Shown piece after piece: positions 729 through 25,223 of a DNA stretch of 31,198 nt. Under the pieces are notes generated by a model. It saw only the letters and a program-made list of their open reading frames with translations. It had not been told where the DNA came from and searched no databases. The translations under genes and the position numbers were made by a program. Origin of the DNA: a virus (lineage: Duplodnaviria; Caudoviricetes); IMG/VR virus record IMGVR_UViG_3300017565_000253, positions 1 to 31,198 of that record. The stretch is one strand, 5' to 3'. How positions within the stretch are numbered: position 1 is the first letter of the stretch; each line of letters opens with the position of its first letter.

Positions 729-818
729 GGAGGGGTGGCCGAGTGGTTTAAGGCAGCGGTCTTGAAAACCGCCGTGCGGGCAACCGTACCGTGGGTTCGA
801 ATCCCACCCCCTCCGCCA
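729..818 (+). tRNA. tRNA-Ser (anticodon TGA)
   Basis: GGAGGGG/CCCCTCC acceptor stem, D-arm GCCGAGTGGTTTAAGGC, anticodon loop CTTGAAA, long variable arm, GTTCGAATC T-loop and encoded CCA end; 90 nt. Confidence 0.98.
805..818 (+). repeat. attL core CACCCCCTCCGCCA (tRNA-Ser 3' end)
   Basis: Identical 14-mer recurs at 15095-15108. Confidence 0.9.
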
Positions 819-956
819 GAACCTTGTTCACCGCATTTCATCATTGTCCATAAACTCAATATCTGTCGATATTTTTGAGCTTTGTCTGCTCGCAATTGTT
901 CTTTTTTGCCCGTCGATGTACCGTGGGTAGAGAATTTGGTTCGGCGGACACATTAA

Positions 957-2213
957 ATGACTAAAGTCCCAACCGGAAAACTCTCGGGCATTGACCTTTG
1001 GCAACTTGCGCCAGGGACCCACTCGGACGGGGACCGATTGCTGCTGCAAGTCAGCAGCCGAACGGCAAGATCATGGATCTATCGCTATCAACTTCACGGC
1101 AAGACGCGAGATTACGGGCTGGGCCCTCTTTCACTCGTCTCCCTATCGCAGGCCCGCAAAGCCCGAGATAAGGCCCGCTATGAGGTCAAGATCGCAGGAC
1201 GCGATCTTGTCGGTGAACGTCTTGGCGCCAAAGCAGAGCGGCGTGCTGCAGCGACAAAACCTCCCAGCCTAACGTTCCGCGAGTGGTCGGAAAAATACAT
1301 CGAGGAAAACTGGGAGAGCTGGCAGAATCCCAAGCATCGCGAGCAATGGCGCAGCACGATCAAAGCGTATGCGCTGCCGCACATTGGGGATCTGTCACCA
1401 TCAGAAATCACCGCGGCTCAAGTCCTGGACATTCTGCGCCAGCCGGTCCCGGTGAAGAGGGATGCGGAGGGTGCTACCGGCATTTTCTGGGTGGAGAAGA
1501 ACGAGACGGCCCGTCGCGTCGCGGGCCGGATACGATCGGTCCTCGACTATAGCCGCCCTACCGATGACCTAAGCTTCGTGAACCCGGCCGAGCTTACCCG
1601 CGCGCTTCGCAACAAGCTACCCCGCCTGCCGGCAGATAAGGCCGGAAAGAACTTCCCTGCCCTGCCTTACGATTCGATGCCTCGGTTTATGGCGGCCTTG
1701 CGCGGCCAGGCCGGCAACGCGGCGCGCGCCGTAGATTTCCTGATTCTTACGGCAGCCCGAAGTGGCGAAGCGCGTGGCGCAAAGTGGAATGAAATCGACT
1801 GGCAGAATGAAATCTGGGTCGTGCCCGCAGCACGGATGAAAAAACGCCGCGAGCATAAAGTCCCGTTGTCGCCTCAAGCTCTCACGATTCTTCGCACAAT
1901 GCAGTCGGTTGCCCAGAGCGATCTCATATTCTCCGGCCAGCGGGGCGGCACCGAGCTTAGCGATACCGCCTTACGGCTTGTGCCGCATCGTCTCGGCTTC
2001 ACCGATATATCCATTCACGGATTCCGCAGCACGTTTGCGTCTTGGCGTGCTGCGAAGGTCGGCGCGCGTTTCTCGCGGGAGCTGGCGGAGGCTGCGCTTG
2101 CTCATATGCTCGGCGACAACGACACGGAGCGTGCTTACCAAAGGGATGACATGGTCGAGCGGCGCCGAGAACTTATGGCTGAATGGGCGGATTTCTGCGA
2201 TGGAAAATCGTGA
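957..2213 (+). CDS. int: P4-like tyrosine integrase with N-terminal arm-binding domain
   Basis: N-terminal HSDGDRLLLQVS...SWIYRY...GLG..SLSQAR arm domain. Catalytic motifs TAARSGE, RMK, HGFRSTF, LAH and AY. Confidence 0.96.
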   Translation: MTKVPTGKLSGIDLWQLAPGTHSDGDRLLLQVSSRTARSWIYRYQLHGKTRDYGLGPLSLVSLSQARKARDKARYEVKIAGRDLVGERLGAKAERRAAATKPPSLTFREWSEKYIEENWESWQNPKHREQWRSTIKAYALPHIGDLSPSEITAAQVLDILRQPVPVKRDAEGATGIFWVEKNETARRVAGRIRSVLDYSRPTDDLSFVNPAELTRALRNKLPRLPADKAGKNFPALPYDSMPRFMAALRGQAGNAARAVDFLILTAARSGEARGAKWNEIDWQNEIWVVPAARMKKRREHKVPLSPQALTILRTMQSVAQSDLIFSGQRGGTELSDTALRLVPHRLGFTDISIHGFRSTFASWRAAKVGARFSRELAEAALAHMLGDNDTERAYQRDDMVERRRELMAEWADFCDGKS

Positions 2214-2802
2214 ATACGAGCCCAAGTGGCTGACCGGGCAAGAAGTCTACACCCTATTCGCCAGTCGAAATGACGCAATCGCGTGGCTCGGTCGAGCTGT
2301 GCGTGATCGCGGGATAGTTGCTCATTCAGCCGCTGATCCGGAAGTGGATTTGTTTCGCCTCACTATCCCAGTAGCGCCAATGCGGCGAGCAAGTATCTGG
2401 AAAGCTGATGCGGACCAGATCGACTGGGCTGATTTCTCTATCCCCTCACCGCACGGCATGAGACGCATTTCATTGCCCACCCCCATTGAGGTGTCGGCCA
2501 GCCTCATCCGCACCCTCCTTGGCGGGGTCGGATCAAATACTAGCGAAGCGTCGGCCGCCTCAACCTCGAACCGCGGCCGTAAGCCTGCCGCTGACTGGGA
2601 TGCCGTCGAACTCTCGGTGCAACTAGAGATTCAAAAGCGAAAATTTCCTGACGCGGAAAATGACGAGGCGGGATGGAACTGCCAAGCTGACGTCGAACGT
2701 TTTGTCGCTGATTTGCTGGAACGTCGAAACACCCCGATATCGGAATCTACGGTCCGCTTTCACGTTGGGAAAATTCTCAATTCTATCAAGGCCGGAAATT
2801 AA
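2200..2802 (+). CDS. Hypothetical protein with probable C-terminal HTH (putative regulator)
   Basis: ATG at 2200 overlaps the int 3' end; the ORF-track start at 1909 lies inside int. C-terminus has RGRKPAADW...ISESTVRFHV, an HTH-like segment. Confidence 0.6.
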   Translation: MENREYEPKWLTGQEVYTLFASRNDAIAWLGRAVRDRGIVAHSAADPEVDLFRLTIPVAPMRRASIWKADADQIDWADFSIPSPHGMRRISLPTPIEVSASLIRTLLGGVGSNTSEASAASTSNRGRKPAADWDAVELSVQLEIQKRKFPDAENDEAGWNCQADVERFVADLLERRNTPISESTVRFHVGKILNSIKAGN

Positions 2803-2844
2803 TTATCGGCCTTTCCCGGCCTTTTCCGGCCGACATTCGCCGGC
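2790..2844. repeat. Short direct/inverted repeats, candidate operator upstream of the AlpA-like gene
   Basis: CTTTCCCGGC (2811-2820) and CTTTTCCGGC (2821-2830) in tandem. GGCCGGAAA (2790-2798) is the perfect inverse of TTTCCGGCC (2823-2831). Confidence 0.5.
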
Positions 2845-2891
2845 TCTCAGAACATCAATGAACCGCAACGCAATGACTTGGGCGGTTCAAT

Positions 2892-3137
2892 ATGCAGACC
2901 CATCGATCAGAACGGCGACGGCCGCCGGCTCGTCCCGCAGAGGCACCTCCAGGCAAAGCCTTTGAGTTTCAGCGCGCCTGTTATTCCGTCGCCGAGACTC
3001 AGCGGATGCTTGGTATCGGACGTACGAAGCTCTGGCACTTGACCCGGACAGGCGATCTGAAATCTGCGAATATTGGACGCCGCGTCGTCTATCTCGCTGA
3101 TGATCTGTCAGCCTTCCTGGCAAAGCTGCGGCAGTGA
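2892..3137 (+). CDS. AlpA/excisionase-like HTH protein (HTH_17 type)
   Basis: YSVAETQRMLGIGRTKLWHL...GDL...IGRRVVY...DL..FL is the typical MerR-like excisionase pattern. Confidence 0.85.
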   Translation: MQTHRSERRRPPARPAEAPPGKAFEFQRACYSVAETQRMLGIGRTKLWHLTRTGDLKSANIGRRVVYLADDLSAFLAKLRQ

Positions 3138-3487
3138 GGATCAGATATGGCGCGGGGCGCACGGCCGTTCAGAACCGCACGCCCCGGGACAGGAAGACGC
3201 AGCAACCTGTTCATAGCCGCACTCCCGCAGATCCGCGACGCACCAAGAAACTACTGCGTTGGGCGGCTCTGCTCGACGGCGAGATCATCGCCGGCGCCAT
3301 CGCCTGCCCTGCTCCAGGCTATTCTCTTTCGGACCGATCCATCACAGTCGCAATTGCCGACGGCTGGCCTGGCGGATTTTCCGTCCGGAGCCGCATCGTC
3401 AGTCGCGACGTCGCGCGTGCCCATGTTGCCGCCCTGCTGTCGGAAGCGGGTAGCCAGCAGTTCGCTCTGTTTCCGGAGGTGCCGTGA
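3134..3487 (+). CDS. Hypothetical protein
   Basis: GTGA start/stop overlaps with both neighbours, suggesting translational coupling. Confidence 0.55.
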   Translation: MRIRYGAGRTAVQNRTPRDRKTQQPVHSRTPADPRRTKKLLRWAALLDGEIIAGAIACPAPGYSLSDRSITVAIADGWPGGFSVRSRIVSRDVARAHVAALLSEAGSQQFALFPEVP

Positions 3488-4050
3488 TGCTGGGCGCCCT
3501 CATCGAAATGCGCGCGGAACTGCATGTTCGGGCCTTTCCGACGGAAGACTGGCTGCGGTATGTCCGACAACACCGCCTCGACATAAGCGCGATTGGGCGG
3601 TGTGCGAGCCTTCTCGGCGTGACGCGGTGCGAGTTTCTGGATAACGGACGGTTCGACTTTTCGGACAGCGGCGAACTGTCGGCCGTGATCGAGGTCTTCG
3701 ACATTGACCTCGAGACAGTCATCGATCTCGTCGCGTGGCCCTGTTCCGATCCGGTCCGATTTGCGACCGCATTCGGCATTGCCGCCGGACTTGGCATCGA
3801 CCAAGTAACGAATCCGGCAAGCTTTTTCCTGGGAAAGCCTCTCGCCGTCCACCACACGCCGCTCTCATGGCTCCAGGCTGGTGGCCAGGGCGTCGTCATC
3901 CTTGACGACAGATCGGCGCCACGGTGGCTGGGTGAGGCGCTAGGTCGACTGGCCGCGGAAGATCTGGAGCACGGCCGGCGTCTTGCTCGCGTGCTGCATG
4001 GCTATCTTGATCTGCGCCGTATCCTGGCGCCGGTCCAGGAGGCAGCATGA
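3484..4050 (+). CDS. Hypothetical replication-module protein (possibly a Toprim-like primase part)
   Basis: Coupled to the helicase by an ATGA overlap. IDLVAW...PL.WL..G..GVVILD pattern recalled from alphaproteobacterial phage proteins; function inferred from position only. Confidence 0.55.
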   Translation: MMLGALIEMRAELHVRAFPTEDWLRYVRQHRLDISAIGRCASLLGVTRCEFLDNGRFDFSDSGELSAVIEVFDIDLETVIDLVAWPCSDPVRFATAFGIAAGLGIDQVTNPASFFLGKPLAVHHTPLSWLQAGGQGVVILDDRSAPRWLGEALGRLAAEDLEHGRRLARVLHGYLDLRRILAPVQEAA

Positions 4051-5150
4051 CGAGCGCGACCGTTCTCAAGCCGATCACGGATGCTTCCCACACCGCGCCT
4101 CGGCGGAAGAGCGGCGGCGAGGCCCCAAAATTCCGGCTAGTCCCTTTCGAGCAGATCAAGGTCGATCTCGAGCGGCGCCCTTACTTGGTGAAAGGCCTCC
4201 TTCCGAACACCGGTTTGTCGGCGATCTGGGGGCCGCCGAAATGCGGGAAATCCTTCTGGGCGCTCGACGTGGGCATGCACATCGCGCTCGGTTGGGAATA
4301 TCGCGGACGGCGAGTCCAGGGTGGCCCGGTTGTCTATGTCGCGCTTGAGGGCAGCGAGGGCTTCAAAGCTCGCATTGAGGCTTTCCGCCGCCGCCATCAG
4401 GTGACGCGCGCGGACTTCTTCCTGATCACCGCCCCACTCAACATGGTCGCTGAGCGCGGGGCACTGGTCGCCGACATCCGGGCCCAGCTCGGCGATATTC
4501 GGCCAGCCGCAGTCTTCATCGATACCCTGAATCGCTCCTTGAAGGGCTCAGAGAGCAAGGACGAGGACATGGCGGCCTATATCTCGGCCGCCGAGGAAAT
4601 TGCCGCGGCATTCGCATGCCATGTCCCAATTGTGCACCACTGCGGCGTCGATGCCAGCCGCCCGCGCGGCCACACATCCTTAACAGGCGCGGTGGAAGCG
4701 CAGATCGCCGTCAAGCGCGAAGGCGAAGGCTTCTCCGTCACGCTGGAATATATGAAAGACGGCCCGGAGGGTGACACCCTCAACCTCCGGCTCGAACAGG
4801 TGGTCGTCGGCGCAGACCCCGACGGCGACGACATCACCACCTGCATCGTCGAGGATAGTTCGCCCGCCGCCAAGGCCCGCCAGCGCGTTAAGCTGGCCCA
4901 GATGCCGGCAGCTGGACTGCGCCAGCTTCACGAATGCTTGGCTGAAAGTGGCAAGCCCTCAACACCTTCGGAACACGTCCCAGCAGGCGTCACATGCGTC
5001 ACGCTCGACGCTTGGAAAGACCGCATGGTCGCGGCAGGCATTTTGAATGCCGAAGGCAACCCTCGCGAACAATTCCGGCGCATACGTGTGACGCTCATAA
5101 ACGCCGGTCTTATCGGCGTTTGGGAGGGCTCGGCATGGTCTGTCACGTAG
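4047..5150 (+). CDS. AAA_25 / RSF1010 RepA-like replicative helicase
   Basis: Walker A GPPKCGKS, VVYVALEG, Walker B VFIDT, VHH, RGHTSL..AVE and KDGPEG motifs; probable C-terminal winged helix. Confidence 0.9.
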   Translation: MTSATVLKPITDASHTAPRRKSGGEAPKFRLVPFEQIKVDLERRPYLVKGLLPNTGLSAIWGPPKCGKSFWALDVGMHIALGWEYRGRRVQGGPVVYVALEGSEGFKARIEAFRRRHQVTRADFFLITAPLNMVAERGALVADIRAQLGDIRPAAVFIDTLNRSLKGSESKDEDMAAYISAAEEIAAAFACHVPIVHHCGVDASRPRGHTSLTGAVEAQIAVKREGEGFSVTLEYMKDGPEGDTLNLRLEQVVVGADPDGDDITTCIVEDSSPAAKARQRVKLAQMPAAGLRQLHECLAESGKPSTPSEHVPAGVTCVTLDAWKDRMVAAGILNAEGNPREQFRRIRVTLINAGLIGVWEGSAWSVT

Positions 5151-5238
5151 CGTCACATCCCCGTCACATCCCGTCACTGTGACGGCGGTGCAACCGTCAC
5201 GTCACAGTCACCCCCCCTTAGAAGGGGTGACATGTGAC
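5142..5238. repeat. GTCAC iteron cluster, putative replication origin
   Basis: Ten GTCAC/GTGAC copies in 97 bp (5142, 5152, 5163, 5173, 5179 rev, 5196, 5201, 5207, 5227 rev, 5234 rev). Includes palindrome CCGTCACTGTGACGG and inverted arms around CCCCCCCTTAGAAGGGG. Confidence 0.75.
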
Positions 5239-5266
5239 AGCACCCGATCGAGCAGGAGCAATCAGA

Positions 5267-5713
5267 ATGTCCAATGATCTCACCACCACGTCGAAACGAT
5301 CGCTCCCGGGCAAGGTAACCGGACGCTTGAAGCAGGCCATTGACCTGATGGTTTGGCAAAATCTGACCGACAACGAAGCTGCCGTGAAAGTCAGAATGAC
5401 TGTGCAGGCAATTCGTTACGCCCTGAAGCGACCGCATGTCGTGCGGTATTTGAGAGAGCAGCGGGAGGTAATGCACACCCGTGAACTCGCCCGCAATTCC
5501 CACACGCTTGTCGACATCCGGGACAACAGCAAAAACGCGATGGCGCGTGTCGCCGCCGTCCGGGAGCTCGAACAGCGTCATGACGAGGATGCGAAGGCGC
5601 CTGCGGCTGCTCGCACCCCGGGCATTGTCATTCAGATCATTGCCGCAGAGCCGGCCTCACCGCGCGTCATTGAGGGTGTGCGCGTGGGTAACGCTGGTGA
5701 TCGCGATGAATAG
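5267..5713 (+). CDS. Putative terminase small subunit-like HTH protein
   Basis: AGGAG RBS at 5254. N-terminal HTH (DNEAAVKV...AIRYALKRPHVVRYL), helical ARVAAVREL segment and C-terminal beta strand PGIVIQII, an architecture typical of TerS. Confidence 0.55.
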   Translation: MSNDLTTTSKRSLPGKVTGRLKQAIDLMVWQNLTDNEAAVKVRMTVQAIRYALKRPHVVRYLREQREVMHTRELARNSHTLVDIRDNSKNAMARVAAVRELEQRHDEDAKAPAAARTPGIVIQIIAAEPASPRVIEGVRVGNAGDRDE

Positions 5714-6024
5714 TCAGTCGTATCAAAGCCCTATGGCGGACCATGCATCCGCCTCGCACGGCATGGCCACCCGTCGGGTCCGCATGTCCTCTGCGGTTGA
5801 CAACAGGCGCTCCGGCCGAAGGTCACCCCCTCCCCCCTTGCGCATATACAGCCCGTCGCTATCCGACCCCCGGCAGGGAAAATGCGACCGCAAATATGGT
5901 GCTGGTGCGCAGCGCATCTGCTTCTCCAAAAAATACTCCAGCCAGAAATCCACGAAAAATGGGCGTTTCGAACGGTGCGTTGTGAGCGCCGAGCATTCTG
6001 CTCAACTGCGGATCGGAGGCGGCG

Positions 6025-6300
6025 ATGCGGATCTATGAAGTTCAGGATTGCGAACTCGGGCGCACGATCGAAATGACAGCGATCGATTTCCGCGAGGCGC
6101 AGCAGAACGCGCCTGGTCGCTACGAATTCATCCGCCGCCTCGACGAGCCCGCGACACCTGCGCTGACAGATCCCCTGTTCCCCGGGCAGGTTCGCAGGAC
6201 GCCTTCCGATGATGCCCGCACCCTGAAGGCCGATCCGCGCTCTGTCGCGGCAGCCCCGAAACCCATCCAGACCAACCGTCGCCGCAGCATGCGGCGCTGA
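6025..6300 (+). CDS. Hypothetical protein
   Basis: GGAGG RBS upstream; first gene of an apparent operon ending in the 1265-aa gene. Confidence 0.6.
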   Translation: MRIYEVQDCELGRTIEMTAIDFREAQQNAPGRYEFIRRLDEPATPALTDPLFPGQVRRTPSDDARTLKADPRSVAAAPKPIQTNRRRSMRR

Positions 6301-6317
6301 TTACGAGGAGCACTGAC

Positions 6318-6521
6318 ATGGACGAATTTGACCACGGCGATCCCACCCTGAACCGTCAGCGGCGGAAGGCCGAACAGGCCGGGCTAGCCGCCCGGTTCAA
6401 CGCTCGCCGCGAGGATCATATCGCCAAGGCGGCGGATGATCTGAAACATCAGCGCCCAGGCGCGCCGATGTTGTCGCCGCTCGCACAAAAGCGCGGTCAG
6501 AAACTTTTGGACCCGAGGTAA
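6318..6521 (+). CDS. Hypothetical protein
   Basis: GAGGAG RBS and tight spacing to neighbours. Confidence 0.6.
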   Translation: MDEFDHGDPTLNRQRRKAEQAGLAARFNARREDHIAKAADDLKHQRPGAPMLSPLAQKRGQKLLDPR

Positions 6522-6525
6522 TCAC

Positions 6526-6765
6526 ATGGCAGCGAACATCACTCTCACAATCGAACTCCCTGAGAATTTCGCGACGGAGTATTCCGCGCGGCAGGCGCTG
6601 GCGGAGCAACTTCAGCTCGCCTCGATAAGGGTCGGCAGCACGGCCGATGTTTTCGGTGACCTGTTCGACGCATCAGGCCGTGTCGTCGGAATGTTCATGA
6701 TCAGTGACGATCCGATCCAGCCTCAGGCACAATCCGCAGCCTTGCGTGCGGGCCGAGCGGAGTAG
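6526..6765 (+). CDS. Hypothetical protein
   Basis: GAGGT RBS; ends 6 bp before the large gene. Confidence 0.6.
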   Translation: MAANITLTIELPENFATEYSARQALAEQLQLASIRVGSTADVFGDLFDASGRVVGMFMISDDPIQPQAQSAALRAGRAE

Positions 6766-6771
6766 CGGTCC

Positions 6772-9700
6772 ATGCCGCTCATTTTTCCCGACGAACCATA
6801 TACGCCGCAGACGCGTGTGCCGACTGGTGTGGAACCGCCGCGCGAGATGCCGCCTTCCGGGCCGGCCGTTCAGGCCGCCGCGATGCGGCAGGAAAACCCT
6901 ATCGTCAATCTGGCGACCCGTCTGTTTGCCGAGTCCTATCCGGAGGAACCCGGCCACAATCCGCTCGACATTATCCGCGACACGCCGTTCGAGGAGCGGC
7001 ATCTCGACCTTTTCGCGAACAGCCGGTCGGAGGCAGAGACGCGGTCGATCATGCGCCGCATCGAGGGTGAGGACGCTGACCGCCGGATGCTCGACGCCGC
7101 CGGGTTTGCCGGGGTGGTGGCGCAGTTCGGCGCCGGGATGTTCGATCCGACCATCGCCCTGCCAGCCGGCACGATCTATCGCAATGCCCGCGGGGGCCTG
7201 TCCATCGGCCGGTCCGCGATGAGCGCGGCCGCCGCCGGCACCTTGCAGGCAGGCGTGGCCGAGGCGGCCCTACAGGCGGGCCAGGAGACGCGCACGGCGG
7301 CGGAGAGCGCCATGGCCATCGGCTCCGCCACGCTGCTCTCCGGCCTGCTGGGGGCCGGCGCGGTGGCGCTTCTGGCCCGCTCGGAGCGCGACGTGCTAGT
7401 GAACGCGCTGGACCGGATGCGGGACGAGATCGACGCGCACGCCGGAAACCGGCCGGAAGCGGCCGCGCCGCCGGGTCAAGCCGGCGCTGAGGCCGCTTCG
7501 GGACCGGTCGGCCGCGGTGCTGAGGTCGGGATGCGGCCGGCCGCCGCGAATGACGCTGGTTCGCCAGCCATGGCGGCATCTGCCGGCGCGGCTGCTGCGG
7601 ACACCCGACAACTCAATCTCGCTGGCGCGCTGGGTATAGAGAAAATCCCAATGGGGCCGTTCGGCTCGCCGACCCGTCGCACGCTCATGTCGGAGTCCAT
7701 CCCGGCTCGCCGCGTCATGGCCGACCTGGCTGAGACGCCCTATCGTTTCGAGGGTGACGAGGTGCCGACCAAGGGGCCCGCGGCGTCGCGCATCATCTCC
7801 ATGGAGGTGAATGGCACCAAAGTGCAGGTCAGCGATGAGATGGACCGCCTGTTCGCGGAATATCGGTTCGGGGGTGAGCAGGTCTGGTTTCCTCGCGGGC
7901 GCGCGCAGTTCGAGCGCTTCACGGGGCAGGCCGACCAGTTGATGACCTATGCGGACTTCAAGCGGGCCGTGGCGCGCGCCGCGATGTTCGGCGACAGCCA
8001 CGAAATTCCGCAGGTCGCGCAGGCCGCGCAGTTCATCCGCCGGAAGGTGTTCGAGCCTTGGGCGACGCGGGCCGAGAAGGCGATTCCAGAGTTCAAGCGC
8101 ACGGCCGCCGCCGAGGGCGAAGCCTATTTCCCGCACGTCTGGAACAAGCAAAAGGTGCGCGCGCAGCGCCCGGAGTTCGTCGACAAAATCACCGACCACT
8201 ACGTGGCCGATCAGGCGAAGAAGGCGGCGGCTAAGCAGCGCCTGACCTTCCTTCAAGCCCAGCTTCGGTCATGGAATCAGCAGATCGGAAAGCTGGACGC
8301 ACGGTTTGCGCGGATCGAGACGAGGCTTGACGATCTGGCCTCCCGCAGCGCTGAGCGTGACGTTGCCGATAGCGCGGCCCGGAACCGCGCCGAAGCGCTG
8401 GAAGAACGCCACGGCCGGATTGCCAATGAGGCAGCCGAACTCGATGACGCCATCGCGCTGCTTGAGGAGATCGGACCTGCCAATCCGACGGTGCGCGCTA
8501 TCCTCGAACGCACGGAAACCATGCTCGGGCGCGCGACCGTGCGCTATGACCGCACCGGTGCCGTGACGGCAGAGGCGGTGCGCGCGGAGCGCCGAAATCT
8601 CAAACGGATCGAAGTGCTGAAAGAACGGCTGGAAAACGCCGAGGCCCGCAAGTCGCTGATCGAGGAATATCGAGCCGTGGCAGATCAGGTCCGCTCCGAA
8701 ATCCGCGCTAAGATCGAGGCGGAAATCGCGGCTTGGGAGGGCAAGAGCACGGCAGAAGCCCGGTCTGCACTCAAGGCGCGCGAACAGTATGCGGCGGATG
8801 CCGAGCGCGGGGCGGACGCACCCCGGCTGGAAGGCGCGGACGATGCGGTGGACCGGGCTGTCCGCCGGATCATCGAGAGTGATCGTGACCTTGATGCTGG
8901 CGACCTGCGTCGCCGGGCCGAAGAAACCGTCGACCGCATTCTCGGCTCGCCAGACGGCCGGCTCCCCTACGACATGAACATGGGCGGACCCCGCATGGGT
9001 GTGCCGACGGGTCCGGCGCAGCGGGGTTCGCTGGCCGGCCGCCAGTTCGATGTGTCGAATGCATGGGCTGCGGACTGGATCGTAGACGACATCGAGGAAG
9101 TCGTCGCAATGCACCTGCGGACCATGGTGCCCGACGTGGTGCTGTCCGAGCGGTTCGGCGATGTGGACATGACGCAATCGTTCCGGGCGGTGCAGGAGGA
9201 TTATGCCGACCGGATCGGCAAGGCGAAGTCCGAGAAGGCGCGTGTGGCGCTGAGCAAGGAGCGCGACCGGGTGATCGCGGACCTGGCGGCCGTGCGCGAC
9301 CGGCTCCGCAGCACGTTCGGATGGTCGCCAGAATACGGGATGCAGCAAGCAGCTCGCTTTGCCACTGCCGCAAAACTTTTGAACAACCTGACGATGATGG
9401 GCGTGGCGGCTGTGACATCCATCAACGATATGGCCGGAATCGTATTCCGTTATGGCCTTTCCTCCGCGTTAGAAAAAGGATGGAAAGTCTATCTGACACA
9501 GATCGCCCGTGGCACGGAACCCGGTGTAAGATTCAAAAAGCAAATGCGTGCTCTTGGCATTGGTGCGGAAACCGCTCTTGCCACCCGCCAGCATGCGTTC
9601 GACGACATCACCGACGTCTATCGGCCGGGCTCTCGGTTCGAGCGGACCCTTCATGCTGCGTCAGACAAGTTTTTCATTCTCAACCTTCAGGCGCCATTAA

Positions 9701-10569
9701 CAGACGTGACGAAGCTGGTAGCGTCTCATGTCGTGGTATCGGAGATGCTGGATGCATCCATTGCTGTCGCTACAGGCAAAGCGACGCGAAAGCAGATCGC
9801 CAACCTCGCGGAATCCGGCATCGACGGCCAGATGGCGACGCGGATCGCCGAACAGTATGCCAAGGGCGGTGCGGAGATCGACGGCGTGCGGCTGCCGAAT
9901 ACGGCGGACTGGACGGATCAACAAGCGGCGCAGGCGCTCAATGGCGCCATCGCCCGTGAGGTGGATATCGCCGTCACGACGCCAGGACAGGAGAAGTCCA
10001 ACTGGTTGTCGCAGCCTGTGCTTGGCGTTTTGGGGCAGTTCAAATCCTTCACCGCCTCTTCCACCGAGCGCATTATGATCGCGAATCTGCAACGCCGGGA
10101 CGCCCAGACCTTGCAGGGCCTGATTATTTCAATCGGCCTTGGAATGATGAGTTATAAGCTCAACAGCATGACTGGCGGCCAACCTACCAGCGACCGTCCG
10201 CAGGACTGGGTGAAGGAAGGCATCACGCGCTCCGGCGTTCTCGGCTGGTTCGAGGAAGGGAATGCGCTGGCGTCCAAGGCGACCCGCGGCGGGGTGGACA
10301 TTTATCGCCTGATCGGCGCGGACAAGCCGGCGTCACGCTTCGTCTCCCGCAGCGCGGCGGACATGCTGCTCGGGCCGACCTGGGGCAAGATCCAGAGCCT
10401 GCCGGGACTGACGGGCGCGGCGGCGTCGGGGGACTGGTCCGAAAGCGACACACGGGCGCTGCGCCGGCTGATCGCTTTGCAGAATCTGTTCTATGTCCGT
10501 GGCCTGTTCAATGAGGTCGAGCGTGGCGCGAATGGTATGTTCGGCGTGGAGATGCGGCTGCGGCCATGA
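6772..10569 (+). CDS. Large internal virion / DNA-ejection protein (T7 gp16-like)
   Basis: 1265 aa, helical, with Ala/Gly-rich hydrophobic N-terminal segments and a central coiled coil. Motifs YFPHVW, GQFKSFT, LIISIGLG and ITRSGVLG parallel motifs I recall from T7 gp16 (YVPHVY, MQFKSFT, IITSMGLAG, LSRSSQLG). Confidence 0.75.
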   Translation: MPLIFPDEPYTPQTRVPTGVEPPREMPPSGPAVQAAAMRQENPIVNLATRLFAESYPEEPGHNPLDIIRDTPFEERHLDLFANSRSEAETRSIMRRIEGEDADRRMLDAAGFAGVVAQFGAGMFDPTIALPAGTIYRNARGGLSIGRSAMSAAAAGTLQAGVAEAALQAGQETRTAAESAMAIGSATLLSGLLGAGAVALLARSERDVLVNALDRMRDEIDAHAGNRPEAAAPPGQAGAEAASGPVGRGAEVGMRPAAANDAGSPAMAASAGAAAADTRQLNLAGALGIEKIPMGPFGSPTRRTLMSESIPARRVMADLAETPYRFEGDEVPTKGPAASRIISMEVNGTKVQVSDEMDRLFAEYRFGGEQVWFPRGRAQFERFTGQADQLMTYADFKRAVARAAMFGDSHEIPQVAQAAQFIRRKVFEPWATRAEKAIPEFKRTAAAEGEAYFPHVWNKQKVRAQRPEFVDKITDHYVADQAKKAAAKQRLTFLQAQLRSWNQQIGKLDARFARIETRLDDLASRSAERDVADSAARNRAEALEERHGRIANEAAELDDAIALLEEIGPANPTVRAILERTETMLGRATVRYDRTGAVTAEAVRAERRNLKRIEVLKERLENAEARKSLIEEYRAVADQVRSEIRAKIEAEIAAWEGKSTAEARSALKAREQYAADAERGADAPRLEGADDAVDRAVRRIIESDRDLDAGDLRRRAEETVDRILGSPDGRLPYDMNMGGPRMGVPTGPAQRGSLAGRQFDVSNAWAADWIVDDIEEVVAMHLRTMVPDVVLSERFGDVDMTQSFRAVQEDYADRIGKAKSEKARVALSKERDRVIADLAAVRDRLRSTFGWSPEYGMQQAARFATAAKLLNNLTMMGVAAVTSINDMAGIVFRYGLSSALEKGWKVYLTQIARGTEPGVRFKKQMRALGIGAETALATRQHAFDDITDVYRPGSRFERTLHAASDKFFILNLQAPLTDVTKLVASHVVVSEMLDASIAVATGKATRKQIANLAESGIDGQMATRIAEQYAKGGAEIDGVRLPNTADWTDQQAAQALNGAIAREVDIAVTTPGQEKSNWLSQPVLGVLGQFKSFTASSTERIMIANLQRRDAQTLQGLIISIGLGMMSYKLNSMTGGQPTSDRPQDWVKEGITRSGVLGWFEEGNALASKATRGGVDIYRLIGADKPASRFVSRSAADMLLGPTWGKIQSLPGLTGAAASGDWSESDTRALRRLIALQNLFYVRGLFNEVERGANGMFGVEMRLRP

Positions 10570-10573
10570 TCGC

Positions 10574-11128
10574 TCAGATTTCCATCCCACGCGCCTTTGG
10601 CGTGGGAGTGTCGGGGGGTGTTGTTCGAGGCGCAGTTTGCGAAGGAGGTGATAGCGCGGCCTTCGCGCGCATCTCGATCACCGCGTTCGAAATACCTGGG
10701 ATGTAGTTTTTACGATTAATGTCGCGGTAGTCTTTCGCGCTGATATTGATTTCGTACTTATACTGGGCAATCACCAGTGCGCTGACGACCCTCTCCCAGT
10801 CACCATTGCAACGATCATAGGCTGCCCGCGCAATGGAATCAGCGGCATCCGAATTGGTCGCGGCGAATATCACTGCTAGCTCCACCGAGCATTTTACAGC
10901 AACCTTGGTCGCCGACGTGACGAGCGGGTCGTCCAAAAGTAAGCGCACGCGTTCGCTGAACGGCTGCTGATTCGGGCCAAGAGAGAGCGGCGATCGTGCA
11001 AATTCTGTTGGACTGGTGGGCGGAGAATAATTTGTGGCTGGTGGGATATAGGTCGAAGCCGGCGGGGAGCCCGTGGTGGTGCAGCCGACCAGATGGCAGG
11101 CTAGAGCAATCCCCCCGAGCTTACGCAT
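10574..11128 (-). CDS. Putative lipoprotein
   Basis: MRKLGGIALACHLVG|C: basic N-region, hydrophobic core and LVGC lipobox, then a Pro/Thr/Ser linker; ATG at 11128. Confidence 0.7.
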   Translation of the reverse strand: MRKLGGIALACHLVGCTTTGSPPASTYIPPATNYSPPTSPTEFARSPLSLGPNQQPFSERVRLLLDDPLVTSATKVAVKCSVELAVIFAATNSDAADSIARAAYDRCNGDWERVVSALVIAQYKYEINISAKDYRDINRKNYIPGISNAVIEMRAKAALSPPSQTAPRTTPPDTPTPKARGMEI

Positions 11129-11314
11129 GACATTTCCCCCCACCGTTGCGGGTATTGATTCCGCAACTTTGGCGCGGCCGCAAGGGGGTAGTTAGTAATT
11201 AGTTAAGACTAGGCACCTGACGCACTATCTCTGACATTTCGATCACGCCGCGGTGGCGGCAGCGCAGCACTCGACGGGCAATGGCGGATAGCGGGTCAAT
11301 TAGCAGGCTTGTTC

Positions 11315-11491
11315 TCAACAATCTGAGCATCCAGATTGGGTCGCACCCAACTGCTCTCTCAACCCGCAAGACTGGCAGAGCAATACATTCGACTCTGGGC
11401 CGGACGACTGTTCCGTCCGCAACCCTATGATATCCGTGGATCCGCATTCGAGGCATTTGTGGTCGCGCACCGCATAGAAGTCTAATCGCAT
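11315..11491 (-). CDS. Small zinc-ribbon protein, possibly a pseudogene fragment
   Basis: GAGGA RBS before ATG at 11491; CLEC, CQSC and CSDC motifs. Confidence 0.4.
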   Translation of the reverse strand: MRLDFYAVRDHKCLECGSTDIIGLRTEQSSGPESNVLLCQSCGLREQLGATQSGCSDC

Positions 11492-11519
11492 CACGTCCTC
11501 GGCTTCAAAGTCATCGCTG

Positions 11520-11693
11520 TCCCGCTTCCTATACCACGTCGCGCGGCTGACCTTGGCGCTGTGCCCCACCGTCTCGCGTCCCCGGCAGGCGCTTGGCGCG
11601 CTAACAGTGGGAGACTGGCGCAGGTTGATCGCCTTTCAGAACGTGCACGGCCTGGGCAATGAGGTCGAGGACGAGGCCAACGGCCACCGCTGA
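11520..11693 (+). pseudogene. Degenerate second copy of the 3' end of the ejection-protein gene
   Basis: Translates SRF...LALCPT...LGALTVGDWRRLIAFQNVHGLGNEVEDEANGHR*, versus SRF...MLLGPT...TGAAASGDW(SESDTRAL)RRLIALQN(LFY)VRGLFNEVERGANG in the intact gene. Exact 13-mer CAATGAGGTCGAG at 10509 and 11657. Confidence 0.8.
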
Positions 11694-11709
11694 CCGAATA
11701 GCAGATCAG

Positions 11710-12627
11710 CTATTCGGATTTCATTTCTGACCAGCTATACAAGGCTCTTAAAGTGAGCACTGGCCTAACTGGTGCCTCCGAGATATCGCCAATTCGACGC
11801 CATTTGTGGACCTCTTCCATAGATAGGACGCCCACCTCGAACGCGTTTGAGATGATTGTATCATTAATCTGATCGTGGAATCCTGACAGACGAATGATAG
11901 GAAATTGCCCAAAGTATAGCTGTCGTGAAACTAAGAGACCAACGGTGAGGTCTATAGGAACCTTCATTCCGTGGCCGTTTTCCATCATCAAAGGTCGATT
12001 GAGAATCGGAATGCGATCATGTTGTCCAGGCTCAGTCGGATATCGTCCAGCGTCCCATTCCGAAGATGCGATTGAAAGCACTGTGCCGAGATTTTCCTGT
12101 GAACCAGAATCAAAAACCGGAACAGATTCGTAAAAATTCAAAGGAGTAGTGAACGGTAGTGGTGCGCTCATACGAAAGCCGAAAGACATTGCTGCTGAAC
12201 GAAAGTCGCAAATTACAGGAATTTTTAAGCGTGCTTGCCATTTGTGAGGATCGGTGTCGATCGGGCTGTAAAGATCTATCTGCAATTGCTGAGCTCGGGC
12301 CTTTGCATTTGGAGTGAATCCCGAAGGGCACACTATCACGCCTCGCTGAACTTCGACGTCGTCGAATAGACCCGCACACTCCTCAACATCTTTGATGTCT
12401 ACCTTTGCTTTGTAGTCCTTGCAGTCAATTGCGATTTTAATCGAGTATTGGCCGATACTATCTTCTATAAGTACATCGATCTGTCGGTCGGCCCCAGACT
12501 TCCCTTTGATCCTTACGTTGTGGGAAACTTTAGAATTTGGTGCGAGATCCTGCTGAATTTTAGCAACCAGCTTCTCAAGCTTCAGATAGTCCGCTTCGGT
12601 TGCGGGAAATTCATTGTCGTCGCTCAT
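11710..12627 (-). CDS. Mrr_cat-like PD-(D/E)XK restriction endonuclease with an uncharacterised C-terminal domain
   Basis: GKSGADRQIDVL...IAIDCKDY..KVDI.DV...GVIVCPSGFT..A motif. GGAG RBS before ATG 12627; visibly lower GC than the flanks. Confidence 0.85.
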   Translation of the reverse strand: MSDDNEFPATEADYLKLEKLVAKIQQDLAPNSKVSHNVRIKGKSGADRQIDVLIEDSIGQYSIKIAIDCKDYKAKVDIKDVEECAGLFDDVEVQRGVIVCPSGFTPNAKARAQQLQIDLYSPIDTDPHKWQARLKIPVICDFRSAAMSFGFRMSAPLPFTTPLNFYESVPVFDSGSQENLGTVLSIASSEWDAGRYPTEPGQHDRIPILNRPLMMENGHGMKVPIDLTVGLLVSRQLYFGQFPIIRLSGFHDQINDTIISNAFEVGVLSMEEVHKWRRIGDISEAPVRPVLTLRALYSWSEMKSE

Positions 12628-12994
12628 CGCAAGCTCCGTGTTCACGCCGCTGTGGGCGCAAGCAAGATCGAGCTTGACCGCGAAACCAAGTCTGATCATT
12701 CTCAGACGTGTATCGGACCGCTACCCGCATCGCCGACCTTATCCGATGCGGGTCTGAGATCGAGAAGAATGCCACGACATCGGGAGAGCGTCGTGGCGTT
12801 TTCTTTTTCTCAGGTCGATTCGGAGGCTAGCTCTGTTCTTGGAAGCCGCAAGCGCTAGAACATTTGGCGAACTGTCTGTACCCAAATATCACAGGCAATC
12901 TGGTAACTGTGACTTCAACTTGACTCTGGTGCGTTGCAGAGCGCCGGCTATCGGGAGAAACCCGGACCATCCGCACCAGCGAATGGCGAGAACC

Positions 12995-13510
12995 ATGACT
13001 TTCCATATCATCGGTGAAGCGTCGGGAATGGACGACATCCACCGCGTGCTGCGCGACCGCGCTGAGGAGATCGGCGCGTCCAGGATGACGCTCGATGAGG
13101 CGACCGGGCTTCCATCAGGCTACAGCGCAAAGCTGCTCTGTAACCCGCCGATCAAAGGGCTCGGCAAGCTGTCGCTAGGCCTGATGCTGCAAACCTTGGG
13201 GCTTCGGCTGCTGGTCGTTGAGGACCCAGATGCAACGGCAGCTGTGGCCCCTCTTCTGCCCCCGAAGCATGCTTCTCGCGATACGCGCTCGAAGGTCAAC
13301 CAGGACATTTCTCTTCGTCCGGACATACAGGCCATTGTTGCACGCCGTGTCCGCGAGGAAATGAAGGCTCAGAGCAGCCGCGGGGGCTTCGCCAGCCAGC
13401 GCAGCAAGACGCCCGAGCAGCGCCAAGCCCAGGGGCGCCGTGGCGCCATGGCCCGCTGGCACGGCCAGAGAGCCTCAAACGCAGCGGCCACTGGCGGACC
13501 ATCCGAATAA
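12995..13510 (+). CDS. XRE/Cro-like HTH protein with basic C-terminal tail
   Basis: RAEEIGASRMTLDEATGLPSGYSAKLL...LQTLGLRL HTH pattern; start at ATG 12995 chosen, but uncertain. Confidence 0.6.
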   Translation: MTFHIIGEASGMDDIHRVLRDRAEEIGASRMTLDEATGLPSGYSAKLLCNPPIKGLGKLSLGLMLQTLGLRLLVVEDPDATAAVAPLLPPKHASRDTRSKVNQDISLRPDIQAIVARRVREEMKAQSSRGGFASQRSKTPEQRQAQGRRGAMARWHGQRASNAAATGGPSE

Positions 13511-13912
13511 TAATACCTGCTCATCTCTGACCGCTTGCGCGGCGCGAACGGCATGTTGTGCCAGCCCGTCACCGATCGCCAGATCGAACGCGAGAATTGT
13601 CCAAGCACGGGCGCGAGCATCCGCGAGACTAGCCGGCTTTGCGGCGGTCGCCCTTTCGACGAGGGCCTTCTCCAGATCGTAAGCAAATTCGGTGATGTTG
13701 TTGAGGATCACTCCCGCACCATTTAGAACGGCCGTATCGCCCTCCTCGAAACGAGGCTGACAAGTCATGGCCTCCGTGACCTGAGCAATCGTCCGGATCG
13801 CCTGACAGAGGCCGCGGACCTCGTTGAACGATAGTGCCTCAATATCTGCATCGGTAACCGCAAGAACAACAGGCAAGCTGGCGGCGGCTGCCGGATTGGA
13901 GGATTTCGGCAT
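13475..13912 (-). CDS. Hypothetical protein
   Basis: GGAG RBS upstream; divergent from the XRE gene across an AT-rich operator region. Confidence 0.6.
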   Translation of the reverse strand: MPKSSNPAAAASLPVVLAVTDADIEALSFNEVRGLCQAIRTIAQVTEAMTCQPRFEEGDTAVLNGAGVILNNITEFAYDLEKALVERATAAKPASLADARARAWTILAFDLAIGDGLAQHAVRAAQAVRDEQVLLFGWSASGRCV

Positions 13913-13924
13913 GAAAGGCTCCGT

Positions 13925-13997
13925 TGATATCTAGGTATCAGTATGATACATATAGATCACTGTTAGCCATTTGTCAATACTTTTAGATCACTGTGAT
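13925..13997. promoter_or_regulatory. Divergent promoter with three 16-bp operator-like palindromes
   Basis: TGATATCTAGGTATCA (13925-13940), TGATACATATAGATCA (13944-13959), CAATACTTTTAGATCA (13975-13990); TAGATCACTGT repeated at 13953 and 13984. Confidence 0.65.
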
Positions 13998-14001
13998 CCT
14001 T

Positions 14002-14247
14002 ATGGACATTCCGACCGGTAGACAGATCGCAGCGGCCCGGGCCCTTCTTGGCTTGACCCAAGCCGAGGTTGCCCTCCGCTCAAAGCTTTCCGTACCGACG
14101 CTCAAGAGAATGGAGGCGAGCGAAGGGCCGATAGCGGCTATGCAGAACAACGTCGATAGTTTGGTCCGAACGCTCGAGGAGGCCGGCGTCGAGTTCATCG
14201 CGGAGAATGGCGGTGGTGCCGGTGTCCGGCTAAACAAAAGGTCATGA
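14002..14247 (+). CDS. XRE-family HTH transcriptional regulator
   Basis: QIAAARALLGLTQAEVA..S.LS..TLKRME...LEEAGVEFIAENGGGAGVRL, a common alphaproteobacterial XRE signature. Confidence 0.9.
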   Translation: MDIPTGRQIAAARALLGLTQAEVALRSKLSVPTLKRMEASEGPIAAMQNNVDSLVRTLEEAGVEFIAENGGGAGVRLNKRS

Positions 14248-14681
14248 ACCCTCCATCCGGACCACTGTTTGTTACCCGCGAACAAGCAGCTACGCGTCAG
14301 GTGGAGGCGGCAATCTCAGCTCTTGAACGTGGTGAATTTGACATCGCCATCACGCTCGCCGGCGCCGCGGAGGGGATGTTTGACTTTCGAAAGGAAGGAA
14401 CAATTCTCGAAGGAATAGCGAACGCTGAACGGGCCCTGACGCACTTCGAAAAGAAAGACTGGATCAATATCCTGAACATGGAGCGTAATTGGCTCAAACA
14501 TTCGAGCGATCGTACCGGCACGATAGCCATCGAACTGTTCTCGGCTGCGTTCATGATTGCCCGAGCTGCGAGCAAGCTGACCCATTGGACGCAACCGCTT
14601 CACGACTTCAAGGCGTGGTATCTTGGCTGGTTATCCACTTACAATCCGTCTTTGCCGGATGATCAAGTTGAGCCCCAATGA
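14244..14681 (+). CDS. Putative HEPN-like protein
   Basis: N-terminal helix pattern AISALERGEFDIAITLAGAAE and Rx4H motif RNWLKH; ATGA-coupled to the XRE gene. Confidence 0.55.
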   Translation: MNPPSGPLFVTREQAATRQVEAAISALERGEFDIAITLAGAAEGMFDFRKEGTILEGIANAERALTHFEKKDWINILNMERNWLKHSSDRTGTIAIELFSAAFMIARAASKLTHWTQPLHDFKAWYLGWLSTYNPSLPDDQVEPQ

Positions 14682-15034
14682 CCACTAAGAAGCCTCCAAT
14701 CAAGATGCCGACGCACATCCCGCTCTATCCGAGCGAAAATCTCATCGCCATCTTGGTGCTGGGCGACCGCGCGCGGGACTGGCCTGGCGTGGCGGCGCTA
14801 GATGAGCGGAAAGGTTTGCCGAAGATCGACCCTGTTCGCGGCGGGCGGTATTGGCCAGCTGTAAAAGCTTTCTACGATATGCACAACGGCGTGAGTTCAA
14901 TCGCTGCGGCAAGCTCTTACCCCATCAGCAGAGGCATTCGGATTGCACCTTTTGCGCTAGACGGCGAGGAAACGCCGCACATTGAGAAGGCAATGGCGCG
15001 CCGCAGGGGCCGCCGCAAGCCGGCATGGGGTTAA
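14678..15034 (+). CDS. Small winged-helix/excisionase-like protein
   Basis: GLPKIDPVRGGRYWPAVKAFYD pattern. Last gene before attR, so it would sit next to int in the excised circle. Confidence 0.5.
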   Translation: MTTKKPPIKMPTHIPLYPSENLIAILVLGDRARDWPGVAALDERKGLPKIDPVRGGRYWPAVKAFYDMHNGVSSIAAASSYPISRGIRIAPFALDGEETPHIEKAMARRRGRRKPAWG

Positions 15035-15094
15035 GATGTGGGTATGTCGGATAACGACGAGAATACCTCTGTAATATCAATATGATTGCGCGGA

Positions 15095-15108
15095 CACCCC
15101 CTCCGCCA
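15095..15108 (+). repeat. attR core of element 1 and junction with element 2
   Basis: CACCCCCTCCGCCA, identical to 805-818. Confidence 0.9.
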
Positions 15109-15384
15109 CTTGCTCTCGCGAAAGCGTTCTCCCGATCTGGCTCCGGCCGGATTTTCCCGTTGCTTTCGAGGGTTATGCGCGGTTGGCTTTGCACTGGCGT
15201 CCTCGCTGCAGCAGCCGGAATGGTTCTCTGAAGCCCGATATTCTCCGGACCTCTCGACTGCGCGCATCCGGTGTAGAGCCCGTAACCGATTGAAAATATG
15301 GGGACAGATCCTCGCGCCACCTGAACACTTCGACGCCGGTGGCGTTCGTGAGATGGAACAGAAATCGAACTCCTGCAGTGAGCT

Positions 15385-16098
15385 TCAATCCGACAGGGGA
15401 AGCGCGTTGAGGTCGGATCGGATTTGCCGCCATCCCGGCATGTTGCGATCAAGGGTCTGCAAGAAGAGTTCGTCGTGTCGCGGTGACACGAAATGGGCCA
15501 TCTCATGCAAGATGACGTAGTCGACGGCGGGCAGAGGTTTCTTCGCGAGGTCAAGGTTCAGCCACACCAGCCCCTTTTCGGGATTGCAGCTGCCCCACTT
15601 CGTCTTCATCAACCTGATGCCCCACCGCGGTATCGGTACGCTTAGCCGATCTGACCACTTGGCGATGCGGGGAGCGGCCTTTTCCCGCAGCTGAGATCGG
15701 TACCACGTCGCCATCCAGCGTGCTTTCTGATCGGTCGTTGAGCCTTCTGGCACCAACATCATCAGGCGATCCGAAGGGTCTGGACGGATCACACAGCGGT
15801 TCTGGTCGTTCGGCTGGACCAGAAGCCTGAGCGGTTTTCCGAAGACAAAATGGGTTTCGCCGGAGACATGCCGGCGTTTGGGTTGGCGGGCCTGACCTTC
15901 GAACTCGCGCCGCTTCTTCTTGATCCAGCCCAGCCGGGTCACAACTGCGACCCGGACGGCGTCTTCGCTGATGGCCGGAGGGGCAGCGACCCGCACGCGA
16001 CCGGCCGGAGGATAGACCCCGATATGCAGATTCTTGATCGGCTTGCGGACCAGTTCCACCGAAAGCCCGGCGATCTCGATCAGCTCAGTATTCATCAT
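15385..16098 (-). CDS. M48/YgjP (DUF45) zinc metallopeptidase associated with type I RM
   Basis: RKPIKNLHIGVYPP, MKTKWGSCN and HEMAH zinc motif; overlaps the hsdR 3' end. Confidence 0.92.
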   Translation of the reverse strand: MMNTELIEIAGLSVELVRKPIKNLHIGVYPPAGRVRVAAPPAISEDAVRVAVVTRLGWIKKKRREFEGQARQPKRRHVSGETHFVFGKPLRLLVQPNDQNRCVIRPDPSDRLMMLVPEGSTTDQKARWMATWYRSQLREKAAPRIAKWSDRLSVPIPRWGIRLMKTKWGSCNPEKGLVWLNLDLAKKPLPAVDYVILHEMAHFVSPRHDELFLQTLDRNMPGWRQIRSDLNALPLSD

Positions 16099-19171: not shown

Positions 19172-19201
19172 GAAATACCCCCTTGGAAACTGTTACCCGA
19201 G

Positions 19202-22764: not shown

Positions 22765-22836
22765 ATTGCCCCTGCCAATCTCTTGCACTACCCCCTCTTG
22801 GCGGCACGGCTTGCAAAAGGTGCTCAGGGGATTGTG

Positions 22837-25188: not shown

Positions 25189-25223
25189 GTTTCGGTAGCC
25201 GTGATCGGTGGTACTTACCGATC

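Follow-up and report, generated by a model that had tools for sequence, protein, structure and literature searches.

Can a phage satellite without capsid genes supply one of the proteins that eject its DNA from the virion? The question is raised by IMG/VR virus record IMGVR_UViG_3300017565_000253, of which the entire 31,198 nucleotides were analyzed (the window, to whose coordinates all positions below refer). An element at 805–15108 contains one very large gene, at 6772–10569. A preliminary description had proposed a satellite that encodes its own podovirus-type ejection protein and lacks capsid, portal, and TerL genes, and had suggested a new satellite class. Our results support a satellite-type element, as judged from gene content, over a deleted prophage, since 10 other independent loci share its architecture. 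The large gene encodes an internal virion protein of a podophage family, and the claim of a wholly new class was not supported.

The 1265-amino-acid (aa) product of the large gene, which at 26.6% of the element is the 3.8-kb gene earlier estimated at a quarter, matched phrog_342 (internal virion protein; E = 3.5e-69, residues 24–1251) and phrog_16310 (E = 6.1e-96) in PHROGs, with no match in Pfam or NCBIfam. In phage and prophage relatives, the gene is the third of a gp14-gp15-gp16 block lying 3' of the capsid, cement, tube A, and nozzle genes, as expected for the proposed podovirus-type ejection family. This block consists of a gp14-like gene (phrog_418), a gene for a 900–1250-aa transglycosylase-domain protein, and the gp16-like gene, and follows the gene order of the ejection operon as given in the available text of a review (PMC8954989). 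The nearest relatives, at 55–63% identity, occur in 41–49 kb phages. An AlphaFold model of residues 640–1265 (pLDDT 75, pTM 0.64) has an all-helical predicted fold and matched 44 predicted viral structures in BFVD at E ≤ 0.001, including internal protein D or core proteins of Bordetella phage BB8, Vibrio phage VP2, Pseudomonas phage LKA1, and Ralstonia phage RSB3 (TM 0.37–0.54).

The relationship to T7 gp16 itself was only partly upheld. The podophage internal-virion family and the third-gene position agree with a T7 gp16-type protein, and no sequence or fold match to the solved T7 gp16 was found. Likewise, the suggested fold comparison with ejection proteins succeeded against the predicted internal protein D models and failed against the Protein Data Bank (PDB). 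The motifs YFPHVW (residue 452), QFKSFT (1089), and RSGVLG (1153) are present as described; their status as T7 gp16 motifs was not confirmed. Searches of PDB sequences with phmmer and profiles returned coiled-coil noise only, and a direct connection sought through two bridging homologues yielded either nothing or a lytic transglycosylase only. The term "gp16-like" is used here on the grounds of family, gene position, and predicted folds, not of T7 gp16 itself. As for T7 gp16, the gene is the largest and third of its block in the phage relatives; in contrast to it, the window protein has no N-terminal transglycosylase. The lytic domain resides in gp15 of the relatives, an arrangement that PMC8954989 allows in its available part, and a lone gp16 would therefore need the gp15 of a helper. 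A further difference is that only one 19-residue stretch of the protein is strongly hydrophobic (residue 183, mean 1.83).

The 14-mer CACCCCCTCCGCCA occurs at 805–818 and 15095–15108 and nowhere else in the 3.62-Mb assembly, and its copies lie 14,290 bp apart, confirming the 14.3-kb unit between tRNA-Ser repeats. Judging from the names of homologues (Bradyrhizobium, Xanthobacter, Bosea), the host would be a Rhizobiales alphaproteobacterium. The integrase reported in the left arm carries three Pfam domains (Phage_int_M, Phage_integrase, and Arm-DNA-bind_3). The helix-turn-helix (HTH) gene described as AlpA-like occupies the AlpA position and is of excisionase type by its matches to HTH_17 and phrog_66 ("excisionase and transcriptional regulator"); Pfam AlpA itself gave no match. 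The helicase and iterons were also as described: the AAA_25 match is strong (Table 1), and 10 copies of GTCAC/GTGAC fall within 106 bp, where no other cluster on the contig reaches 6. This repeat cluster has no match elsewhere in the genome, the same repeat-around-palindrome layout lies 3' of the helicases in two sister elements (G410 and G342; G and L labels denote genomes and loci of the comparison set, and C a contig), and no primase domain was recognized in the open reading frame (ORF) adjoining the helicase.

The proposed TerS-like gene gave a weak PHROGs match (phrog_2538, E = 0.029). Because this profile alone is weak, we base the assignment on structure and on gene position in a homologous prophage: the Atlas model resembles a Terminase_2 cluster (TM 0.59/0.67), and the protein is similar (E = 2.5e-8) to one encoded in a prophage two genes upstream of the TerL and portal genes. 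A viral scan with TerS alone as the query gave no matches. Comparison of the spacer 5713–6025 with the post-terS spacers of nine related loci disclosed no significant match that would mark a pac site (best 11/200 shuffles), and no sigma-70 promoter was found within 5100–11300. The three small ORFs noted earlier between TerS and the large gene do exist, each preceded by GGAG or GAGG. For the first, a profile built without the window scored ORF 6025–6300 at E = 4e-4 to 2e-3 among 6830 ORFs. The third, 6526–6765, has one phage relative, in L182 (z = 8.5); a likeness seen by eye to L184:7886–8104 failed a shuffle test (z = 1.1).

The claimed absence of capsid, portal, and TerL genes was corroborated by scans of the 19 element ORFs against Pfam and PHROGs and by tblastn. 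No TerL or portal family was found among these ORFs, and tblastn against the element with relatives of the nozzle (91), tube A (73), capsid (43), and gp14-like (85) proteins gave 0 matches. The 114 proteins labeled gp15 gave one match, a mislabeled gp16 aligning to 6772–10569, and thus no gp15 remnant. The three methods also found no tail, holin, portal, or connector genes in the element.

To place the element among its relatives, we pooled 163 loci, drawn from scans of genomes, viruses, and metagenomes and from genome handles. A member of the gp16-like family is present in 156, and these form 113 clusters at 95% identity. A capsid, tube A, or nozzle gene lies within 12 kb in 65 of the 113, identifying podophage virion modules; 32 have too little upstream DNA to judge, and 16 lack virion genes by the probes used. 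Five of these 16 were not counted, namely a T7-like prophage missed by the probes (L093) and four ambiguous or fragmentary loci (G651, G673 C23, L026, and L087). Integrase-bearing islands accordingly make up 11 of the 113 clusters, a share that becomes 11 of 81 when those with too little context are set aside. They comprise the window, L020, L184, and elements in G130, G199, G164, G410, G109, G716, G673, and G524. Besides the window, 10 independent loci thus have the satellite architecture. Eight of the 11 are bounded by tRNA repeats (14.3, 17.5, 17.0, 17.2, 19.5, 15.7, 14.9, and 12.2 kb), with the G524 element at the same tRNA-Ser(TGA) position as that of the window; att pairs were sought and not found in G164, G410, L184, G340, and G337. 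Matches occurred in 14/400 genomes at the family level, 13/400 at the order level, and 6/400 at the class level, and in 0/60 in the initial search of relatives; 32 of the 33 matching genomes were inspected, and 8 hold such an element. A single-protein scan of genome contigs gave three loci, all with phage virion genes.

The ejection genes differ among these islands. A gp15-like partner is present in 9 of the 11, three of which have a clear gp14, and gp16 stands alone only in the window and L184. The latter, a linear 15,380-bp IMG/VR contig, encodes an integrase, xis, primase, TerS of the window's family, resolvase, small ORFs, a homologue of ORF 12839, gp16 (phrog_342, 3.6e-83), Xre, and tRNA-Glu. 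L048, a short fragment with the same backbone genes, has an N-terminally cut gp16. The elements in G130, G199, and G164 carry a classical TerS (phrog_51, ~1e-37). A search with the TerS alignment matched 10/330 family genomes at 11 places, 10 of which were read; one was a prophage (G130). Among the others, the integrase-replicase-TerS elements of G340 and G337 carry cassettes of several genes that belong to another ejection lineage (phrog_684, phrog_992, and phrog_418). In G342, gp14-like and gp15-like genes are present, with gp16 missing as far as the contig extends, and G194 and G246 have gp14-like genes only, both weak (phrog_418 at E = 0.008 in G194; phmmer only in G246). No ejection genes were found in G087 (7.3 kb, att-bounded), G209 (two places), or G282. 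The variable ejection slot of this backbone family fits modular capture as well as decay.

Several observations on the sister elements are recorded here. Scaffold-like genes at L082:18340–18948, L085:7039–7611, and L198:16436–17278 (weak phrog_458; one phmmer match to a phage scaffold) may redirect capsid size. In the G130 element, a phrog_308 internal virion protein (L082:15739–16296) precedes gp14-gp15-gp16; transcription of this cassette runs away from TerS. The 19.5-kb att-bounded island of G109 (L094:9144–15070) represents a different capture with a different gene order, in which a gp16 with an N-terminal lytic transglycosylase is followed by a 708-aa internal virion protein. In L091 (G321:C7), a podophage prophage, the genes for capsid, tube A, nozzle, gp15, and gp16 are broken into fragments, an instance of true prophage decay in the family. 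An ejection-gene satellite and a podophage prophage occur together in G130:C1 (1.41–1.44 Mb and 1.63–1.65 Mb) and in G716 (C27 and C12). These are candidate helper-satellite pairs, though the two gp16 copies of each genome fall in different clades.

Phylogenies of the family suggest where the island genes came from. A quick IQ-TREE analysis covered the 560 C-terminal residues and, once 14 near-duplicates had been dropped, 78 of 92 rows; on this tree the 10 satellite-labeled rows need 7 changes, and the starred branches force at least 6. A FastTree tree of 80 rows, from which duplicates and long branches were dropped and to which new viral loci and six database proteins were added, gave the same counts for 12 satellite rows, including L085, which was labeled a satellite after the first tree had been seen. 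Ejection genes therefore appear, from these trees, to have been captured from phages by related islands at least six separate times. The window gp16 nests among the phage genes L011, L012, L017, L018, and L019, four of which lie on 42–49 kb contigs. Approximately unbiased (AU) tests on 38 rows, with groups defined by gene context but after the trees had been seen, rejected a clade of the window and L184 (p = 3e-61) and a clade of nine satellite rows (p = 2e-69).

One satellite clade has six members (G716, G673, G164, G199, G130, and L085). Within it, the ratio of nonsynonymous to synonymous substitution rates (dN/dS) was 0.17–0.25 for gp16 (four pairs, three with dS > 1), 0.30 for gp15 (one pair), and 0.08 for the integrase and primase. 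These values indicate that the island gp16 copies are under purifying selection. The window gp16 keeps 122 of 126 strongly conserved C-terminal columns, compared with a median of 97.6% in 48 homologues chosen by their likeness to it, and 41% of the variable columns versus a median of 46.8%.

Comparison with known satellites, which refers to the available parts of the sources cited, placed the element close to the phage-inducible chromosomal islands (PICIs). Four of the five PICI core functions are present, which argues against a wholly new class. By the SatelliteFinder gene list, the integrase with att repeats, the replicase module (AAA_25 and iterons), and the small terminase are present, and for the regulator (alpA, merR, or stl) there is the HTH_17/phrog_66 protein at the AlpA position, a candidate without a Pfam AlpA match. 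No family or homologue was found for the capsid morphogenesis gene, which is absent in PICI type B; ORF 6025 weakly resembles a small capsid-module gene. As compared by gene content, the element resembles PICI type B (de Sousa et al. 2023, PMC10085698) in having an integrase, a small HTH regulator, a replicase, and TerS in the usual order without a capsid-morphogenesis gene, and differs in its large virion protein; the words "ejection," "internal virion," and "alphaproteobacteria" do not occur in the main text of that paper as available. None of the markers of capsid-forming PICIs (TerL, portal, capsid, and head-tail genes) was found in the element by Pfam, PHROGs, or tblastn. The P4-like satellites are marked by the genes Sid, Psu, Delta, and alpha, and none of the corresponding Pfam or PHROG families was found in the 19 element ORFs.

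DNA-delivery-type genes have already been described in two satellite systems, a further point against the new class. EcCIMP1 is a 19,963-bp PICI of E. coli MP1 that is mobilized by the temperate P22-related phage Kapi1 (Pick, Stadel and Raivio 2025, PMC11773190), and the authors liken the products of its coding sequences 017–019, downstream of the primase, to DNA-transfer and DUF2824 proteins in a putative role. Both elements are tRNA-integrated and carry an integrase; EcCIMP1 also has AlpA and a primase. Compared by description only, EcCIMP1 is enterobacterial and has a multi-gene set of P22-type transfer proteins, whereas our element has a presumed alphaproteobacterial host, a TerS-family gene, an AAA_25 helicase, and a lone 1265-aa phrog_342 protein. 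The PLEs of Vibrio cholerae, elements resembling phage-inducible chromosomal islands, build chimeric tails with their own tape measure, the deletion of which lowers transduction by 96–99.9% (Mathur, Boyd et al. 2026, PMC12987554). The likeness lies in a satellite-supplied DNA-delivery protein, needed for transduction in the PLE, with helper parts for the rest; the PLE uses the tail of the myophage ICP1, unrelated genes, and a larger conserved core, in contrast to the internal head protein and proposed short-tailed helper here.

The minimalist phage-inducible islands of the chromosome (PICMIs; PMC10803314) and the integrative mobile elements encapsidated in virions (VEIMEs; PMC9618062) are free of capsid genes and are packaged as concatemers in full-size helper heads, a mode that, by analogy, could possibly apply to the element. 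PICMIs are ~6 kb, lie at fis, and lack TerS, unlike the 14.3-kb element at tRNA-Ser with its TerS-family gene. As to the suggested trimeric packaging, 3 × 14.29 = 42.9 kb is an arithmetic fit, but it is not diagnostic because the bounded sister elements span 12.2–19.5 kb with no fixed ratio to a helper genome; packaging in small heads is also conceivable. The words "internal virion" and "ejection" do not occur in the main text of the VEIME paper as available, and the element is not described in the available parts of the Charybdis preprint (10.1101/2025.08.03.668216) or of the phiGT1 paper (PMC10386132), where the word "satellite" is also absent. Within the open full-text literature, excluding subscription papers, no satellites with ejection proteins were found beyond EcCIMP1. 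New here are the alphaproteobacterial backbone family, the repeated independent capture, and the gp16-only form seen twice.

We favor, at about even confidence, the reading of the element as a PICI-type satellite of temperate alphaproteobacterial podophages whose gp16-like protein would join the ejection machine of the helper. By the example of PICI biology (PMC10085698, PMC11773190), the HTH regulator would become active once the helper is induced, a circle would be excised by the integrase, and the helicase would replicate satellite DNA from the iterons. The satellite TerS would then recruit helper TerL and procapsid, and the gp16-like protein would be loaded into the helper head beside helper gp14 and gp15 and aid delivery of satellite DNA. 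Because the protein would form no channel alone, without a lytic domain, this role requires the gp14 and gp15 of the helper. The chimeric ejection machine would be the podophage counterpart of the PLE tape-measure swap, and one gain might be control of DNA entry, by likeness to T7, in which gp16-C acts as a clamp on the genome at ~850 bp and point mutations permit entry independent of transcription (PMC8954989). The helper is likely to be found among the temperate 41–49 kb podophages in which the nearest gp16 genes and a TerS of the same family occur, with modules in the order scaffold-capsid-cement-tube A-nozzle-gp14-gp15-gp16. A broader formulation, in which podophage satellites have repeatedly and independently captured ejection genes and a single gp16 suffices for a chimeric machine that favors satellite entry or disables helper particles, is one we hold a little less firmly.

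Several results weigh against the favored reading. Foldseek searches of the PDB with both AlphaFold halves of the protein gave 0 matches at E ≤ 0.001. No homologues of podophage capsid, nozzle, tube A, or gp14 were found in the rest of the assembly, which thus shows no resident helper. No attP or attB joint was seen in the contigs of four public runs (at most three samples, two flagged as possible origins of the window DNA), contigs being prone to drop rare forms, and the depth of the element (12.2 in run X1) equals that of the right flank. The element is not visibly excised or amplified in those runs, as expected without a helper, and they give no support for mobility. The selection values are not of the window's own copy, since it has no close satellite relative, and its end branch (0.38–0.41) is longer than those of most phage neighbors. 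The ragged ejection content across the TerS-defined family also fits decay, and a subunit only ~60% identical to the known phage copies may fail to assemble with them.

Decay is the core of an alternative that we consider unlikely without dismissing it: the lone gp16 would be the remnant of a gp14-gp15-gp16 cassette, or a fresh and idle capture, and only the multi-gene cassettes of sister elements would be functional. The prevalence of the gp15-like partner (9/11 satellite clusters), the existence of partial sets and empty elements, the cut gp16 of L048, and the long end branch of the window gp16 are all in keeping with it. However, the 3.8-kb frame is intact and retains its conserved sites normally, neither gp14 nor gp15 has left a detectable remnant there, and the gp16-only state occurs twice, with genes from different phage clades. 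Rather improbable, in our judgment, is interference, in which a mismatched gp16 would enter helper heads and yield non-infectious particles, or would block incoming DNA, and so protect the host population. Single-subunit sets (gp16 only or gp14 only) would each act in this way, different single subunits do recur on the same backbone, and PLE Rta shows that satellites attack the DNA-delivery parts of a helper (PMC12987554, available text). Yet the protein is full length with its conserved sites kept, in most sister elements two to four ejection genes are retained and co-selected, beyond the need of a poison, and a poison would harm satellite particles too unless excluded from them. Very improbable is descent from a podophage prophage through loss of most of the virion module, even though the nearest gp16 relatives all lie in full phage modules and TerS and ORFs 6025, 12839, and 14678 have phage homologues. 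The left arm (int-HTH-helicase-iterons-TerS) is in PICI order and is common to G410 and G340, whose ejection genes belong to other lineages; the two att sites are intact, no virion-module gene fragments are left, and the bounded sister elements cluster at 12–19.5 kb.

Table 1. Features of the element (805–15108) and its integration site, in window coordinates
Feature	Positions	Strand	Basis
tRNA-Ser(TGA), integration target	729..818	+	ARAGORN
attL core, 14 bp, 3' end of the tRNA	805..818	+	Repeat comparison
Tyrosine integrase with arm-binding domain	957..2213	+	Pfam PF13356, PF22022, PF00589; phrog_1 1.9e-49
ORF without family match; true start probably near int end	1909..2802	+	ORF list
Excisionase/AlpA-type HTH regulator	2892..3137	+	HTH_17 1.1e-10; phrog_66 1.7e-4
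Small ORF without family match	3134..3487	+	ORF list
Conserved pre-helicase ORF, common to sister elements G410 (38%) and G340	3484..4050	+	Similarity
AAA_25 replicative helicase, 46% to G410 element	4047..5150	+	AAA_25 E 2.9e-34 (Pfam)
Iteron cluster, 10 x GTCAC/GTGAC around central palindrome, likely origin	5137..5242	.	Repeat count
TerS-family protein, likely small terminase	5267..5713	+	phrog_2538, structure, prophage similarity
Weak homologue of small phage gene between capsid cement and tail tube A	6025..6300	+	Profile
Small ORF, no relative found (Pfam, PHROGs, loci tested)	6318..6521	+	ORF list
Small ORF	6526..6765	+	Viral hypotheticals as nearest Atlas clusters (0.85, lead only)
gp16-like internal virion (ejection) protein, 1265 aa, intact, no N-terminal transglycosylase	6772..10569	+	phrog_342, phrog_16310, synteny, BFVD folds
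Lipoprotein-like cargo ORF, signal seen by eye, no family	10574..11143	-	ORF list
Small zinc-ribbon-like ORF	11315..11569	-	Weak sub-cut-off Pfam matches
Mrr_cat restriction-endonuclease-fold cargo, possible defence gene	11710..12699	-	PF04471 6.7e-13; PADLOC PDC-S02 6.9e-6, partial
Conserved ORF, common to L184, L048, G410, G342, G194, and phages	12839..13510	+	Similarity
ORF without family match, no relative in loci tested	13475..13912	-	ORF list
Xre-type HTH regulator, 40–45% to L184 and L048	13993..14247	+	Pfam, similarity
ORF, function not assigned	14244..14681	+	ORF list
Small attR-adjacent ORF, common to G410 (49%), L020, and several phages	14678..15034	+	Similarity
attR core, 14 bp	15095..15108	+	Repeat comparison

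At the right end of the element, ORF 14678–15034 may be a second excisionase; its homologues lie at the ends of several phages and satellites, and the one in phage Mwe-JY08 adjoins a 400-aa gene that ends the genome. A second island adjoins attR (15109–31198) and encodes a YgjP-like metallopeptidase, the type I restriction-modification proteins HsdR, HsdS, and HsdM, a Ccr-like serine recombinase, an extracytoplasmic function (ECF) sigma factor, and further phage-like ORFs. In runs X1 and X2, the left flank (1–760) has depths of 16 and 39, compared with 12 for the element and right flank (789–17500), a hint that both islands are present in just a fraction of the population. The independently assembled L015 matches the window except for 1 base in 19,995 and may represent the same population.

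Such elements escape current annotation, because the gp16-like protein has no match in Pfam or NCBIfam. Satellites are known to act on capsid size, on packaging, or, in the case of PLEs, on the tail. The apparent captures of ejection genes by alphaproteobacterial satellites, at least six and independent, with purifying selection on the genes, point to genome ejection as a further contested step. If this is true, satellites would have a general and so far undescribed step of hijacking that acts on genome delivery instead of capsid size or packaging. The gp16-only elements pose a clean question, whether one ejection subunit may be swapped between ~60%-identical lineages, and also ask whether gp16 sets which DNA enters the cell.

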